Shown in pieces: positions 17,390-58,131 of a DNA stretch of 64,000 bases (positions within the stretch are counted from its first letter, which is position 1; every line of letters starts with the position of its first letter). The notes beneath the pieces are model-generated. The model ran no database searches. It had not been told where the DNA came from and was given only the letters and a program-made list of their open reading frames with translations. Source of the stretch: a virus; IMG/VR virus record IMGVR_UViG_3300032294_002877, positions 1 to 64,000 of that record. The stretch is one strand, 5' to 3'. A program made the translations under genes and the position numbers.

Positions 17390-17399
17390 CAATTCAAAC

Positions 17400-17644
17400 T
17401 GGACTATGCCAGTATAAAGAGATTTTAGGCATAGTGCGGCGGGATTCGTCCCGCGTAATGAGAGTTCGTTGCAGACCTAGGTGCAGCCTAGAGAGGGATT
17501 TAACCAATCCTATAAGACGGGTGGTTCCGTCGAAAGTTGTTGCTCTCTAGAGTTTTATTACTAATATAGATGGTACAACAACGCCAGCAAACCGATAGAC
17601 GCTGACGAGCCCCGGCGGTAGCACCGTCCGGGCTATCGGTCTAT
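17400..17644 (+). ncRNA. Candidate multi-hairpin structured RNA directly upstream of the tRNA cluster
   Basis: Helices ACTATGCC/GGCATAGT, GCGGGA/TCCCGC, CTAGAGAG/CTCTCTAG enclosing two hairpins, ACCGATAG/CTATCGGT, and GTTGTTG/CAACAAC (possible pseudoknot). Confidence 0.55.
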
Positions 17645-17716
17645 GGGGCCATAGTTAAATGGATATAACACGGGATTTCTAATCCTGTATTGTAGGTTCG
17701 ATTCCTACTGGCCCTA
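17645..17716 (+). tRNA. tRNA-Arg(TCT)
   Basis: Acceptor GGGGCCA/TGGCCCT; anticodon loop TT-TCT-AA; GGTTCGATTCC T arm. Confidence 0.9.
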
Positions 17717-19948: not shown

Positions 19949-19951
19949 TTT

Positions 19952-20036
19952 GGAATCTTGGCAGAGTGGTCTAATGCAGCGGTTTACTAAACCGCCGAAG
20001 AGAAATCTTCCGGGGGTTCGAATCCCTCAGATTCCG
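19952..20036 (+). tRNA. tRNA-Ser(ACT), unusual A34 anticodon
   Basis: GGAATCT/AGATTCC, G discriminator, long variable arm; GCGGT-TTACTAA-ACCGC. Confidence 0.85.
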
Positions 20037-20040
20037 AATT

Positions 20041-46691: not shown

Positions 46692-46765
46692 GGGGCGTTG
46701 CAGCCGGTAGTTGCACATACTCTTATAAGGTATTCAAAAGGTAGGTTCGACTCCTACACGCCCTA
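46692..46765 (+). tRNA. tRNA-Ile(TAT)
   Basis: GGGGCGT/ACGCCCT; ATACT-CTTATAA-GGTAT; GGTTCGACTCC. Confidence 0.85.
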
Positions 46766-46785: not shown

Positions 46786-47139
46786 GGGGGTATAATAGAT
46801 TCGACTACATAATGGAGATTATATTAGCAAGTAGTGGTTGATCGACAGGCCACTATAAAAGTCGATTAAACGCTTTAACTGGCGAAACTCAGTTAGCCCT
46901 TGCTGCTTAATTAAATAACAGCAACAATCTTAGGAAGCGATGAAGGTAGCGTCCAAAAGATTGTCGTAAAATCCTTCGGCTCCTGTTAGTGGTGACGGTT
47001 AACAGGCTAAGATGTGTCACTAGGATTGATGACTGTTGTTCATTCTTTAATCAAATCCGAATGTTTATGAATGAACTAAACTTGTAGAAGATATTTTCAA
47101 ATTTATGCTAGGACACGGGTGCAAATCCCGTTACCTCCA
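46786..47139 (+). ncRNA. ssrA: tmRNA, tag peptide (A)GETQLALAA
   Basis: 5' GGGGGTA...GATTCGAC; tag ORF ggc gaa act cag tta gcc ctt gct gct taa (46881-46910); 3' T arm and TACCTCC-A. Confidence 0.93.
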
Positions 47140-47279
47140 CTTATGAGTTTCTGGAAAAAGGTATTCAAGAAGTATAAGAAAGAAAAGAAACAAGATTTAG
47201 AAAGTCTTGTAGAGGATAAGTATTTTCAAAAATTACAAAAGAAACTGAGCAAACATAACACTAAACATAAAAAGAAAAA

Positions 47280-54145: not shown

Positions 54146-55387
54146 ATGAAACATTCACGCCGAAAATTTACTCTAGGACTAACATCATTAGGTCTTACCG
54201 CTTTTTCTTCTAATATTGCTTTTAGTGTTGAAGAAAATATTCCCAAATGCGATCACAATAACAATAGCGTTATTTACTTGTTTTTAAGTGGTGGCCCAAC
54301 ACATATAGAAACTTTTAATCCAATCCCAAACGCTACATCAGATAGAAAATCTGTTATTGGCGACAGAGCAACAAAAACTCCGGGGTTTGGTATAGGTGGA
54401 TTATGGGAAAAAATATCAACAGTTTCGGATAAATTTTGTGTTGTGAATAGTTTTCATCATAGTGATCCTAACCATGAGAGTGCTGTTCATTGGATGATGA
54501 CCGGAGAAAGAAACGTACCAAATGCTGCACAGAAGTGGCCCAGTTTTGGTAGTGTAGTAGTTGGGCAGTATGGTACGAATATTGATTCTGGTTTGCCGAC
54601 ATACGTTAAACTAAATCCAATACAGCATGACGGTGCATCATGGATGGGTAGTAAATACATGGGTTATGGTGCTTCTGGAGAAGGCGTCAAAGATTTGATG
54701 CTGAAACAAAAAGATCGTTTTGAAAACAGAGCAAATATTCTAAAAACTCTGGATCATTCTCCGGTATTTAAAAGCAACGACACTGCTAGTAAAAACTGGA
54801 TAGAATTACGAAATCAAGCCATTAATGTTCTCTTGGGAACCGCCAACGAGGCTTTTCTAGTAGACAAAGATCCAGAATACGATACTTATAAAAAGGATCA
54901 ATTAGGTAAAGACTTACTAACAGCAATACGATTAGTCGAGCGTGGAGTAAAGTTTGTTACCATAAATTATGGTGGTTGGGATATGCATCAAAATATTAAT
55001 CAGGGCTTGAACAAACTAATTCCTCCATTAGATAATTATCTATATCATTATTTTAATTCAGCACAAAGAAGGGAGATAAATAAGAGGAATATGCTAGTGA
55101 TGACCGGGGATTTTGGACGAACCCCAAAGGTTAATAAAGATGCTGGCAGGGATCATTGGCCTCATCTGGTTCCCTTATTCATCGCCAGCGACAGTTATGA
55201 AATGGGAAGGGTGATCGGTAAGTCTGATTTAAACGCGGAGCGTCCAGACGTTGATCCATATGAACCAGAAGATTTAAAGTGGACTATCTTGAATCATATG
55301 GGAGTCAATAAAAACGCTAACTGGACTAGTATTGAGCAAAGACCTATGATATTTGTGAAAGACACTGCAAAAAATATCCTAGTCTAA
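54146..55387 (+). CDS. DUF1501 family protein with Tat signal (second copy)
   Basis: SRRKF; LFLSGGPTHIETF, AIRLVERGVKFV, GGWDMH, GDFGRTPKVN and GRDHWP motifs. Confidence 0.92.
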   Translation: MKHSRRKFTLGLTSLGLTAFSSNIAFSVEENIPKCDHNNNSVIYLFLSGGPTHIETFNPIPNATSDRKSVIGDRATKTPGFGIGGLWEKISTVSDKFCVVNSFHHSDPNHESAVHWMMTGERNVPNAAQKWPSFGSVVVGQYGTNIDSGLPTYVKLNPIQHDGASWMGSKYMGYGASGEGVKDLMLKQKDRFENRANILKTLDHSPVFKSNDTASKNWIELRNQAINVLLGTANEAFLVDKDPEYDTYKKDQLGKDLLTAIRLVERGVKFVTINYGGWDMHQNINQGLNKLIPPLDNYLYHYFNSAQRREINKRNMLVMTGDFGRTPKVNKDAGRDHWPHLVPLFIASDSYEMGRVIGKSDLNAERPDVDPYEPEDLKWTILNHMGVNKNANWTSIEQRPMIFVKDTAKNILV

Positions 55388-56212: not shown

Positions 56213-56339
56213 GAAAAAAAATTCAAGCGTCACCCATTGACAGGACGATACTAGGTTGTAGAATAGGAGAGTCTGACAGGAAATCGGTCATGTGACCGAC
56301 TTGTGAGACAAAAACTTGGTAAAGATTTGGAGGTCGATT

Positions 56340-56621
56340 ATGGCAGAGGTTAACACGGTTGAGAAGCAGACTCGCGTTCGTTGCAGTGACGAGCAGTTCC
56401 TTGAGGCGGTTTTTTCCAGCAAGACTTATGCTGAAATTGCCAGCAAGACTGGTCAGAAGGTTGCTAGTACGATGGCTCGTTATGCTCGTACAAAGGCCGC
56501 TCTGGCTAAGAAGGGCATTGAACTGCCTGCGATGGAACGTGCGAAGCCAACTAAGACGGTTGATAACGTCGAGGCTATGGCAGAGGTTGTTCGTCGCATC
56601 AAGGCCCATACGAATGGTTGA
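56340..56621 (+). CDS. Hypothetical protein (possible HTH)
   Basis: GGAGG RBS; promoter at 56238. Confidence 0.65.
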   Translation: MAEVNTVEKQTRVRCSDEQFLEAVFSSKTYAEIASKTGQKVASTMARYARTKAALAKKGIELPAMERAKPTKTVDNVEAMAEVVRRIKAHTNG

Positions 56622-56708
56622 TGTTTCATAATGGTCGCTGACTATTATAATGGAAAAGAGACAGCATTAATGATAAAATCTTATCCTAATAGTAGTCAGC
56701 GACTTTAT

Positions 56709-57000
56709 GGTCTTTTGGCGGAATAGGCAGACGCAACGGACTTTAGTTAATAAAATTGGAGTGCTTAAAGGGAAACTTTTAAAGTAGAACCTGTCAAAGT
56801 CGGTGAAACCTGTAAAATGGCAATACCGAACCAAACCTAATTATTAGGAAGGCGTAGAGACTTGACGGCAGGAGCCTGTGATATAAAATATTATGGCTAA
56901 GGTAAAGTCCAGACCACAAACCGAAAGGGTAACGAAAGTTATAGTGGTAAGAAAATCCGTTGGGAGTAATCCCGTGTGGGTTCAAGTCCCACAAAGACCA
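56709..57000 (+). tRNA. tRNA-Leu(TAA) interrupted by a group I intron
   Basis: GGTCTTT/AAAGACC-A. The spliced anticodon arm is ACGGA-CTT|AAAA-TCCGT, followed by a long variable arm and GGTTCAAGTCC. Confidence 0.92.
56744..56951 (+). mobile_element. Group I self-splicing intron (about 208 nt, no internal ORF)
   Basis: Inserted after U34 of the anticodon and ends in G. Conserved-core-like segments include GTAGAGACTTGACGG and TAAAGTCCAGACC. Confidence 0.85.
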
Positions 57001-57073
57001 CTGTAGTTAAATAAGTAGAGAAATAAATTCTTATGGTGTATTCTAATTAGACTACATCATAGGAATTTAAATC

Positions 57074-57538
57074 ATGAAAAAATGTCGTAAATGTCAAAAA
57101 GAATTTCCAAATAGAGTTAAAATTAACGGGGCAATTAAGGTTATCAATAGGAGAAAATATTGTTTAGAATGTTCTCCTTTTGGAGAAAGGAATACCAGAA
57201 AACTTCACTTGCCTCAGAGAGATAAAAATACTACCAAAAATTGTCCTCAATGCGGTAAAGATTTTAAGTGGAATAAGAACAATATTTGTTGGACTTGCAG
57301 ATCATTTAATAGAAGACAACTAAATAGAGGAAAAGGTATCAAATATCTAGGATCAAAATGTAAGAAATGCAAAACTAAGGATACTGAGGTTTTAACATTT
57401 CATCATTTAGATAGAAATAATAAATACGATAATCTATCCAGCCTTTGGCATCGTGAGTGGGATATAATTAAATCAGAATTAGATAAGTGCGAATTGCTTT
57501 GTGCTAATTGTCATATGAAACTTCATAAAAGGAAATAA
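57074..57538 (+). CDS. Free-standing HNH endonuclease
   Basis: CxxC clusters; LTFHHLD...ELDKCELLCANCH. Confidence 0.85.
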   Translation: MKKCRKCQKEFPNRVKINGAIKVINRRKYCLECSPFGERNTRKLHLPQRDKNTTKNCPQCGKDFKWNKNNICWTCRSFNRRQLNRGKGIKYLGSKCKKCKTKDTEVLTFHHLDRNNKYDNLSSLWHREWDIIKSELDKCELLCANCHMKLHKRK

Positions 57539-58131
57539 AATGAGCAAAAATTCTCTTGAACTTTATAAGATCGGCAGTAAGGTTAAACTCACGGATGATC
57601 TGTATGGTAATATCAGTGCAATTTGTTTGAGGGGTAATAACTATGTGACCTATGAATGTTCTTGGTGGAACGGTTCTTCTCATGATTCTAAATGGTTTTA
57701 TGAATCAGAAATAGAGGTTAGTTCTGATGCCGAGAAACATCGTATAGGATTTGCTTGATAATGAGAGCGATGTTAAAAATTGGTCCGGTGAAACAAAATG
57801 ATGTTTATGTTCCACAAAGAGGCGAAGTGGTTCAATACGATAGACTTGGAGATGGGTCTTGGTTAACACTTCATGTTGGAGATGGTAAAAATACAGTACC
57901 AAATTTACCCACAGTAGTTGACTATGATCTACATGACAGAGTTCTAAAACTAGAAACAGAAATAGCAAAACTTAAACAGATTAAAAATGAGTTGTAAAAA
58001 TCAGTGCGTTAAATATAAAGTTGTGGCTTGGGCCAGAATAAATGACAAAGGGGATTTATATGATCTTCGCACCCAACTCAATCCTTATGTTGATCCTAAG
58101 ACAGTAGTTCCTTTGTACAGAATAATTAAGG

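Follow-up and report, generated by a model that had tools for sequence, protein, structure and literature searches.

A group I intron in a phage tRNA-Leu(UAA) gene and the HNH endonuclease gene beside it: two selfish elements at one tRNA locus?

Introduction

When a group I intron that lacks an open reading frame (ORF) interrupts a phage tRNA gene, and a free-standing endonuclease gene begins a few dozen nucleotides downstream, do the two elements move as obligate partners, as occasional companions, or independently of each other? The question is raised by a tRNA-Leu(UAA) locus in the IMG/VR virus record IMGVR_UViG_3300032294_002877, a 180,460-bp genome of a T4-like phage that is rated complete by CheckV and whose first 64 kb constitute the window, i.e., the whole stretch of DNA analyzed here. 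The answer proposed, which draws on a comparison with roughly 200 loci of related phages and to which a probability of roughly 0.6 is attached, is that two selfish elements share this locus, namely an ORF-less trnL intron and a homing endonuclease cassette of the HNH type that belongs to the tRNA flank, with the intron being co-converted. This explanation is favored because the HNH gene is tied to the flank of the tRNA, yet this subtype of intron is found only in its company.

As of 2014, all known phage introns resided in protein-coding genes, despite the many tRNA genes that phages carry (Hausner, Hafez and Edgell, 2014; PMC3984707), and no report of a group I intron in a phage tRNA gene was found in the open literature after that year. 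Precedents for cooperation between introns and separate nucleases include collaborative homing, as described for a T7-like phage and for the cyanophage psbA gene, and the trans-homing of the T4 nrdB intron by MobE (summarized in PMC2988022).

Anatomy of the locus

When introns are allowed, ARAGORN reports a tRNA-Leu(taa) gene at 56709-57001 with the junction gactt-intron-aaaat, the joined exons of which adopt the 84-nt fold of a class II tRNA-Leu; both ARAGORN at its default settings and the Rfam tRNA model miss the gene. The features of the locus are as follows.

56709-56743 (+): exon 1 of tRNA-Leu(UAA), 35 nt, comprising the acceptor 5' strand, the D arm, the 5' half of the anticodon stem, and C32, U33, and U34 (ARAGORN)
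56744-56951 (+): ORF-less group I intron, 208 nt (Rfam RF00028, RNAalifold consensus, and pair counts)
56952-57000 (+): exon 2 of tRNA-Leu(UAA), 49-50 nt, comprising A35 and A36, the 3' half of the anticodon stem, the long variable arm, the T arm, the acceptor 3' strand, and discriminator A (ARAGORN)
57002-57073 (+): spacer of the cassette, 72 nt, with a hairpin at 57024-57069 that buries the Shine-Dalgarno sequence
57074-57538 (+): free-standing HNH endonuclease gene, 154 amino acids (PHROG family phrog_2255)
56695-57555 (+): conserved block, about 860 bp in length, that takes in the intron-bearing tRNA, the spacer, and the HNH gene and is sharply bordered in the comparison with two related loci, L080 and L095

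The insertion point thus falls between U34 and A35, the plus strand of the intron contains no ORF of at least 40 amino acids, and both the intron and the HNH gene are present in a single copy in the 180,460-bp genome. On this anatomy, a working tRNA must await the self-splicing of the intron from the precursor; as splicing would restore an ordinary anticodon loop, the mature tRNA would be the same as one made without an intron, a point that bears on the first-pass suggestion that the intron may matter for anticodon-nuclease defences. The first-pass annotation of this DNA, made from the letters and their ORFs alone, had recognized three of these points: the 208-nt ORF-less intron splitting the anticodon, which the ARAGORN call and the ORF scan confirm to the base; the insertion site of the trnL(UAA) intron, which the CUU/...G/AAAA arrangement matches exactly; and the free-standing HNH gene 73 nt after the tRNA, which is a member of phrog_2255 at 57074-57538 and is present in some syntenic phages and absent from others.

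Presence and absence of the intron in sibling phages

Because the gene at 56316-56621 lies upstream of the tRNA and is 85-93% conserved, it can serve as a probe that is independent of the intron. It matched 256 IMG/VR relatives, the best 80 of which were fetched as an unbiased sample of the clade; throughout, fetched loci (designated by L numbers, L001 being the window's own) are best-scoring subsets of longer match lists, and IMG/VR contigs are fragments, some of which may be misclassified. A tRNA with anticodon UAA stands approximately 100 nt downstream of the probe gene in 76 of the 80 loci, and the intron is present in 32 and absent from 44 of these syntenic tRNA(UAA) genes of the T4-like clade. 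Two forms of the tRNA body occur, each with and without the intron, the first being a normal 85-nt class II tRNA-Leu. Moreover, alleles that differ at only 1-3 positions are found with and without the intron (L089 versus L326 and L012 versus L328). Given that both tRNA forms and near-identical alleles occur in both states, the intron has been precisely and repeatedly gained or lost.

The second tRNA form measures 73-77 nt (L120, L121, L127, L129, and many more); it combines a Leu-type 3-bp D stem with a large D loop and discriminator A, and its variable loop has only 5 nt where class II tRNA-Leu bears a long arm. Several ARAGORN calls of an intron-bearing "tRNA-Phe(gaa)" (L191, L196, L334, and L335) were set aside as tRNA(UAA) introns ending in ...TACG whose boundaries had been misplaced.

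The endonuclease gene follows the tRNA flank

Within the unbiased sample, the HNH gene is present in 5 of the 76 syntenic loci. A scan with the HNH protein retrieved 22 orthologous loci (55-95% amino acid identity), 20 of which have readable upstream sequence, and in all 20 the gene starts 69-78 nt after a tRNA(UAA), irrespective of intron state or tRNA body type. If nuclease and intron formed a collaborative pair, genomes with the nuclease would have to carry the intron, and the two would be associated across relatives. Instead, 11 of the 20 orthologue loci are intron-less and 9, the window included, are intron-plus; in the unbiased sample, the gene adjoins the tRNA at 3 of the 32 loci with the intron and at 2 of the 44 without it (Fisher p 0.64), and the share of intron-plus loci in the HNH-centered sample (9/20) matches that of the clade (32/76; p 1.0), all linkage statistics having been computed without correction for relatedness. 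All four combinations of intron and HNH presence and absence occur in the clade, and the state of the intron changes at least three times on the HNH tree, with at least two of these changes forced by well-supported branches.

The most telling locus is L326, in which an HNH protein 88% identical to that of the window follows a nearly identical spacer and an intron-less tRNA-Leu. Between the end of its D arm and the end of its T arm, this uninterrupted tRNA agrees with the window's spliced exons at 54 of 54 positions, so that cleavage of the uninterrupted anticodon region would strike L326's own genome. The collaborative-homing logic behind the first-pass proposal, in which the HNH enzyme cuts intron-less tRNA-Leu alleles and the intron shields its own genome, is not supported, given the 11 intron-less loci with the nuclease, L326, and the want of an association (p 0.64).

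Farther afield, distant homologues of the protein (31-42% identity, IMG/VR) and the homologues in every isolate inspected are encoded within arrays of tRNA genes, as a rule with a tRNA of the same orientation ending 45-110 nt ahead of them; the isolates comprise Bacillus phages Vinny and Bastille, T5-like Vibrio phage VCPH, N4-like Klebsiella phage KpCHEMY26, Streptomyces phage WhereRU, Mycobacterium phage Lewan, and Pseudomonas phage HHBS9_1. Judged by the placement of its relatives, the window's HNH lineage is one of endonuclease genes associated with tRNA flanks. A T arm, GTGGGTTCAAGTCCCAC, that had at first seemed common to all loci with the HNH gene was disproved as a shared feature by the wider HNH-centered sample. 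Separately, as a fourth arrangement, a distantly related HNH gene whose product is 36% identical to the window's was observed on the opposite strand, 8 nt upstream of the syntenic intron-less tRNA(UAA), in two loci (L183:2252-2704 and L185:3366-3818).

Known systems offer parallels for a nuclease gene in such a position. T4 SegB lies between tRNA genes, recognizes the T-loop motif GGTTCRANTCC, and drives the inheritance of the T4 tRNA region (PMC2330249). Like segB, the window's HNH gene is a free-standing endonuclease gene among or behind tRNA genes, on the same strand and absent from relatives, and it shares with segB a hairpin that sequesters the ribosome-binding site (PMC2988022); unlike SegB, a GIY-YIG enzyme, the window's enzyme is an HNH protein of phrog_2255, its target is only conjectured, and the tRNA that it adjoins contains an intron. 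The F-Tfl endonuclease genes of T5 also reside in a tRNA cluster (2004 study, cited in PMC2330249). What they share with the window's HNH family is their setting, as site-specific endonuclease genes within an array of phage tRNA genes: in VCPH, an HNH homologue is located between tRNA-Ala and tRNA-Tyr; in contrast to the window's locus, no intron is involved, and the likeness is one of position, not of sequence comparison.

A subtype of intron found only with the nuclease

Despite this independence, one subtype of the intron (at least 92.8% identical), represented by the window, L062/L095, L080, and L027/L089, is confined to contigs that bear the HNH gene (6/6), compared with only 1 of approximately 30 other intron-plus loci that has a window-type HNH gene; the subtype forms a clade with 100% support (window, L027, L062, and L080). 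This confinement suggests that the nuclease may help the intron to spread. The earlier suggestion that the HNH gene spreads both elements is consequently retained for the intron, which may be carried along, and abandoned insofar as it tied the HNH gene to the intron.

The comparison with L080 and L095 delimits the conserved block, which is 91-100% identical between these loci and the window (exon 2 of the tRNA being identical in both), versus 42-49% in the left intergenic region and 66% in the next gene (57540-57758). Synonymous divergence (dS) is 0.35-0.41 in the HNH gene versus 1.7-2.0 in the next gene. The block fits, as far as such comparisons reach, a cassette with its own history, different from that of at least the right flank; the notion that its high identity marks a recent transfer was rejected on the basis of the HNH dS. 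Within the block, the nuclease cassette proper (spacer plus HNH gene) measures 537 bp. On the left, its border falls 2 nt past the tRNA's 3' end, as seen from an HNH-plus and an HNH-less locus with the same tRNA and intron (L343 versus L180), and its right border is the stop codon of the HNH gene, one base before the ATG of the next gene.

These observations suggest a course of events in which, during co-infection, the HNH enzyme would cut cassette-less relatives in or next to the tRNA gene, likely in the T arm or at the 3' end of the tRNA, by analogy with T4 SegB. Repair would then copy the cassette together with neighboring DNA, and, since the intron is located only about 50-260 bp from the cassette, it would be co-converted and would spread with the nuclease by trans-homing or hitch-hiking. 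The nuclease would not depend on the intron for the protection of its own genome. The intron, in turn, probably profits from the nuclease by co-conversion, as the T4 nrdB intron does from MobE, while no gain of the nuclease from the intron is demonstrable; on the distribution described above, the two would be loosely linked travelling companions and not an obligate pair.

Several points weigh against this explanation. The proposed target is a guess by analogy, and the diversity of tRNA bodies that adjoin the cassette fits, but does not prove, recognition of a generic tRNA motif. The 6/6 linkage between intron subtype and nuclease could be mere common descent of a few related contigs. An HNH dS of 0.35-0.41 indicates that the block has not been exchanged recently; in L095, the upstream gene also has a dS of 0.35, which weakens the evidence from the left border, and the left side may reflect vertical descent with a fast-evolving intergenic hairpin. 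Lastly, the Rfam score of the window's intron (44.1 bits) does not reach the 50-bit gathering threshold of RF00028.

The HNH protein and the probable control of its translation

The HNH ORF matches phrog_2255, "HNH endonuclease", over its full length (E 1.7e-30). It has no match to a Pfam HNH model, only a weak match to a zinc-finger model, and a sequence search of the Protein Data Bank retrieved only zinc-ribbon ribosomal proteins and thus no solved relative. N-terminal zinc-finger-like CxxC motifs precede a C-terminal core of the form CKKC ... FHHLD ... N ... CANCH ... H. All 18 full-length orthologues are intact and retain both HH...N...H and the two CxxC pairs, and the ratio of nonsynonymous to synonymous divergence (dN/dS) is 0.06-0.08 versus L080 and L095, from which it follows that the protein is maintained by selection.

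The spacer hairpin at 57024-57069 (-22.3 kcal/mol, z -5.3) holds in its 3' arm the Shine-Dalgarno sequence AGGA (57061-57064), ten bases before the ATG. When orthologous spacers are folded singly, a hairpin that sequesters the Shine-Dalgarno sequence is found in 16 of 16, with differing outer-stem sequences; an RNAalifold run on the MAFFT spacer alignment, which recovered the inner stem only, was superseded by these single folds. By analogy with T4 and its relatives, the hairpin probably holds back translation of the HNH gene by hiding the ribosome-binding site: such control is known for I-TevI, I-TevII, I-TevIII, segB, and Aeh1 mobE, which are translated only from a late promoter inside the hairpin (PMC2988022). 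Like those of the T4 homing endonucleases, the HNH hairpin is stable, lies just upstream of the start codon, and contains the Shine-Dalgarno sequence, and it has been kept through compensatory changes. In contrast to the T4 cases, a late promoter within it is not established; AATAAATT (57023-57030) matches TATAAATA at 6 of 8 positions by eye. Scans of the locus for sigma-70 promoters and terminators gave no signal reliably above background.

Alternative explanations

A broader reading of the same data, which is entertained tentatively, holds that the uncultured T4-like phages of this clade preserve, side by side, each of the steps by which a mobile intron arises at a single tRNA site, that in the window an ORF-less ribozyme and a tRNA-flank nuclease with no need of it have become a de facto composite moving as one 860-bp cassette, and that at least three unrelated HNH lineages compete for the site. 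The stages observed are the bare tRNA, the ORF-less intron, the flanking nuclease, the intron with a flanking nuclease (the window), and introns with an HNH gene inside, in either orientation. In L124, L142, L145, and L155, the end of the tRNA is separated by 0-3 nt from an HNH gene of the phrog_10822 type that is encoded on the opposite strand; in its free-standing form, this type accompanies 4 of 32 intron-plus and 0 of 44 intron-less tRNAs (p 0.028). Members of the phrog_10822 lineage also reside, in either orientation, within the long introns of L006, L010, L039, L048, and L115, and the introns of L019, L021, L035, and L049 harbor a third lineage, phrog_14913. The window's HNH gene belongs to neither of these lineages. 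From their positions, the phrog_10822 lineage of the sibling phages fits the collaborative model, and for the phrog_10822 and phrog_14913 enzymes it is plausible that collaborative homing led on to a composite mobile intron.

The intron and the HNH gene might also be mere neighbors that arrived and persist independently, with the block explained by shared descent and purifying selection on each part. The occurrence of all four combinations without an overall association speaks for this account, as do an HNH dS similar to that of the upstream gene in L095 and the expectation that the tRNA, the intron, the spacer hairpin, and the HNH gene are each under selection. It is nevertheless unlikely, for it leaves unexplained the confinement of the intron subclade to HNH-bearing contigs and the steep divergence at both borders of the block, including a 4- to 5-fold rise in dS at the junction of the HNH gene and the next gene; furthermore, the intron would be co-converted upon any double-strand break up to a few hundred bp away, in keeping with what is known of homing endonucleases in T4 (PMC2988022 and PMC2330249).

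Collaborative homing in the strict sense, wherein the HNH enzyme recognizes the uninterrupted anticodon-loop region, the intron confers immunity by splitting that site, and both elements are copied, has less still to recommend it and is judged improbable. The arrangement of an ORF-less intron adjoining a free-standing HNH gene is that of the cases in PMC2988022, the window's type of intron is always accompanied by the HNH gene and one subtype is thus co-inherited with the nuclease, and phrog_10822 at the same locus behaves as this model would have it, both in its association with the intron and in its occurrence inside long introns. For the window's own enzyme, the dependence on an intron that interrupts the target is contradicted by the 11 loci at which an intact HNH orthologue stands beside an intron-less tRNA(UAA), by the identical uninterrupted site of L326, by the absence of an HNH-intron association and the repeated changes of intron state on the HNH tree, and by HNH relatives behind many other intron-less tRNAs. 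By analogy, the window appears closer to MobE-type trans-homing by co-conversion than to collaborative homing. Finally, the HNH gene is very unlikely to have been domesticated as a weapon against co-infecting relatives, as a packaging-associated HNH, or for maintenance of the tRNA locus, since the gene is absent from most closely syntenic phages, a pattern expected of selfish homing endonuclease genes rather than of functional ones, and keeps company with tRNA genes instead of terminase genes, notwithstanding its low dN/dS, its conserved translational control element, and a phage intron endonuclease known to act in phage competition (PMC11620839), interference with competitors and homing being, moreover, not mutually exclusive.

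The intron as a group I ribozyme

Several lines of evidence concern the fold of the intron. Rfam Intron_gpI (RF00028) matches 56734-56933 over the whole model (1-253) with 44.1 bits (E-values of 4.6e-10 in the local search and 4e-11 for the whole genome); by comparison, the same model gives 87.5 bits for a related intron in a phage tRNA-Asn gene and 77-78 bits for introns in capsid genes. For the fold, 58 distinct short phage introns were aligned and submitted to RNAalifold, with the P7 pseudoknot added by hand. The resulting consensus comprises an extension of the anticodon stem, P1 through P9, and two hairpins within P9, and every consensus helix is also present in the window's own intron, where the helices were mapped as follows.

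56741-56744/56758-56761 (+): P1
56765-56782 (+): P2
56790-56795/56867-56872 (+): P3
56800-56805/56824-56829 (+): P4
56809-56820 (+): P5
56830-56855 (+): P6
56857-56863/56905-56910 (+): P7
56873-56898 (+): P8
56913-56917/56944-56948 (+): P9, enclosing two GAAA-capped hairpins (56921-56928 and 56930-56941)
56951 (+): omega-G, the terminal base of the intron

Across the 58 homologues, 98.5% of the cells of the 58 proposed pairs, P7 pseudoknot included, are standard pairs, compared with 28-41% in controls with slid partners. Compensatory change is seen in 36 of the 58 pairs, and the observed covariation is reached by none of 500 shuffles; the P7 pair 147-193, for example, is AU in 29 sequences and UA in 29. 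Covariation hence supports the conserved P3-P9 core with its P3/P7 pseudoknot. The U.G pair of P1 at the 5' splice site (U = 56743) is invariant (58/58), and the last base of the intron is G in all 97 sequences listed (the window's L001 and the phage-database records L002, L003, and L006 besides IMG/VR contigs), 95 of which were delimited by ARAGORN with the split CTT/...G/AAAA. The window's intron is 92-97% identical to the introns of phages whose HNH genes differ by a dS of 0.35-0.41, and the persistence of such identity beside that divergence indicates purifying selection on the intron. On sequence grounds, it is a functional-looking, conserved group I ribozyme.

Family, distribution, and relatives of the intron

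A 26-nt pattern of the trnL junction (intron 3' end plus exon 2) matched 110 IMG/VR contigs, and ARAGORN found a tRNA-Leu(taa) split at the identical position in at least 94. Intron lengths fall into two classes, 191-278 nt and 628-922 nt, the long class occurring in 10 contigs. In GenBank phage DNA, the same split gene was found in the Agrobacterium jumbo phage Atu_ph07, in the 735-kb huge-phage record LR756501, and in LR756511, in which an HNH ORF resides inside the tRNA-Leu intron; in total, three huge-phage records have an intron at this site. The Atu_ph07 gene (L002:1207-1568; MF403008.1, approximately 112.9-113.3 kb) encodes tRNA-Leu(UAA) and has no annotation; its group I intron is 278 nt long, and the 3' end of the gene is overlapped by a "hypothetical protein" coding sequence, AUZ94936.1.

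The junction pattern CGAAAG....AGTRGTAWG/AAAATCC is also present in at least 120 bacterial genomes, from Pseudomonadota, Acidobacteriota, Bdellovibrionota-like bacteria, Bacteroidota, and one cyanobacterium. The window's intron can be aligned at full length to bacterial trnL introns with 59-74% identity, i.e., at most 74% to any bacterial copy retrieved and 59% to the single cyanobacterial example, versus 76-97% to other phage copies. A quick maximum-likelihood tree placed 59 of 64 viral rows in one group, together with five contigs from metagenome-assembled genomes, apart from the large proteobacterial, acidobacterial, and cyanobacterial clades, with weak support (SH-aLRT 84). These identities and the tree therefore point to a phage-borne branch of the known trnL family and not to a recent capture from a cyanobacterial host; the phylogeny against bacterial trnL introns that the first-pass annotation had called for thus returned the same family, with the phage copies mostly together.

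Its sequence makes the intron a member of the classical trnL(UAA) family of bacteria and plastids (Kuhsel et al., 1990, as cited in PMC3984707), and its U34/A35 insertion site is class "Leu.3Ug" of Williams (2020; bioRxiv 10.1101/2020.01.27.920355). It shares with the classical intron the CUU/...G/AAAA site, the absence of an ORF, a length of about 200-250 nt, the core helices, and the 3' terminal motif, and differs in being carried by a lytic-type T4-like phage and in its polymorphic presence among sibling phages.

Other phage introns came to light in the course of these searches. A 78-nt part of the intron core is 85-89% identical to the sequence between split capsid ORFs in HTVC120P and KT997847. 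In KT997847, a deep-sea podophage, the capsid-gap sequences are two group I introns (L005:1448-1628 and 2157-2337; Rfam 78 and 77 bits, respectively); the capsid gap of Pelagibacter phage HTVC120P (L004:1464-1654) has no Rfam match at E <= 1e-4 and is a putative intron only. In L353:1006-1287 and L354, a group I intron of 210 nt, that with the 87.5-bit Rfam score, interrupts a tRNA-Asn(GUU) gene between positions 35 and 36. Two further loci (L358:2011-2287 and L365) contain a probable tRNA with anticodon CAU and a putative intron after U33, with the boundary read by eye and no Rfam match at E <= 1e-4; a split at this point resembles the tRNA(CAU) introns of Azoarcus and cyanobacteria.

Other features of the phage

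The rIIA gene of the phage (59912-62662; phrog_612, E 1.5e-112) encodes a product at most 38% identical to that of any isolate, and a megablast search of GenBank phages with 14 kb of the window returned no match. Besides the split gene, eleven conventional tRNA genes, a transfer-messenger RNA (tmRNA), and a Pistol ribozyme were found. The full-length tmRNA gene (46786-47142, +; Rfam 101.5 bits) lies directly 3' of tRNA-Ile(tat) (46692-46765), and the Pistol ribozyme (17398-17460, +; Rfam 52.5 bits versus a gathering score of 34.5) approximately 185 nt upstream of the tRNA cluster that starts at 17645. ARAGORN calls a tRNA-Ser with anticodon ACT at 19951-20037 (+), which Rfam confirms as a tRNA (54.2 bits) and in which A34 makes for an unusual anticodon. 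At 54146-55387 (+), 1.3 kb upstream of the tRNA-Leu locus, a gene encodes a member of the DUF1501 family (Pfam E 1.3e-60) whose N-terminus resembles a Tat-type signal, an unusual cargo for a T4-like phage.

Immediately before the split tRNA, and extending into its first bases, is a very stable hairpin of about 85 nt (56627-56709, +; -33.5 kcal/mol, z -8.6) that matches no Rfam family. An equivalent hairpin occupies the same place in 15 of 15 sibling loci tested (-29 to -41 kcal/mol), with entirely different stem sequences between siblings; an apical GAGGCAC...AACCUC motif is found in 12 of the 15, the exceptions being L126, L158, and L179, and it is likewise missing from the window itself. It could mark a site of processing, terminate the upstream gene, or represent a small RNA.

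Implications

The locus constitutes a natural experiment on how ORF-less introns and free-standing endonucleases meet, and, because all combinations exist among close relatives, the alleles for cleavage and cross experiments can be synthesized directly. Atu_ph07, being a cultured jumbo phage, offers a ready experimental system for splicing. As default tRNA finders miss intron-split genes, the tRNA repertoires of phages are under-counted, and a tRNA intron is sometimes annotated as a "hypothetical protein".

In cyanobacteria and plastids, the trnL intron has long been taken to mark ancient vertical descent. The classical intron is also common and polymorphic in phages, including the cultured Atu_ph07, and phages are for this reason plausible vehicles for its scattered distribution among bacteria.

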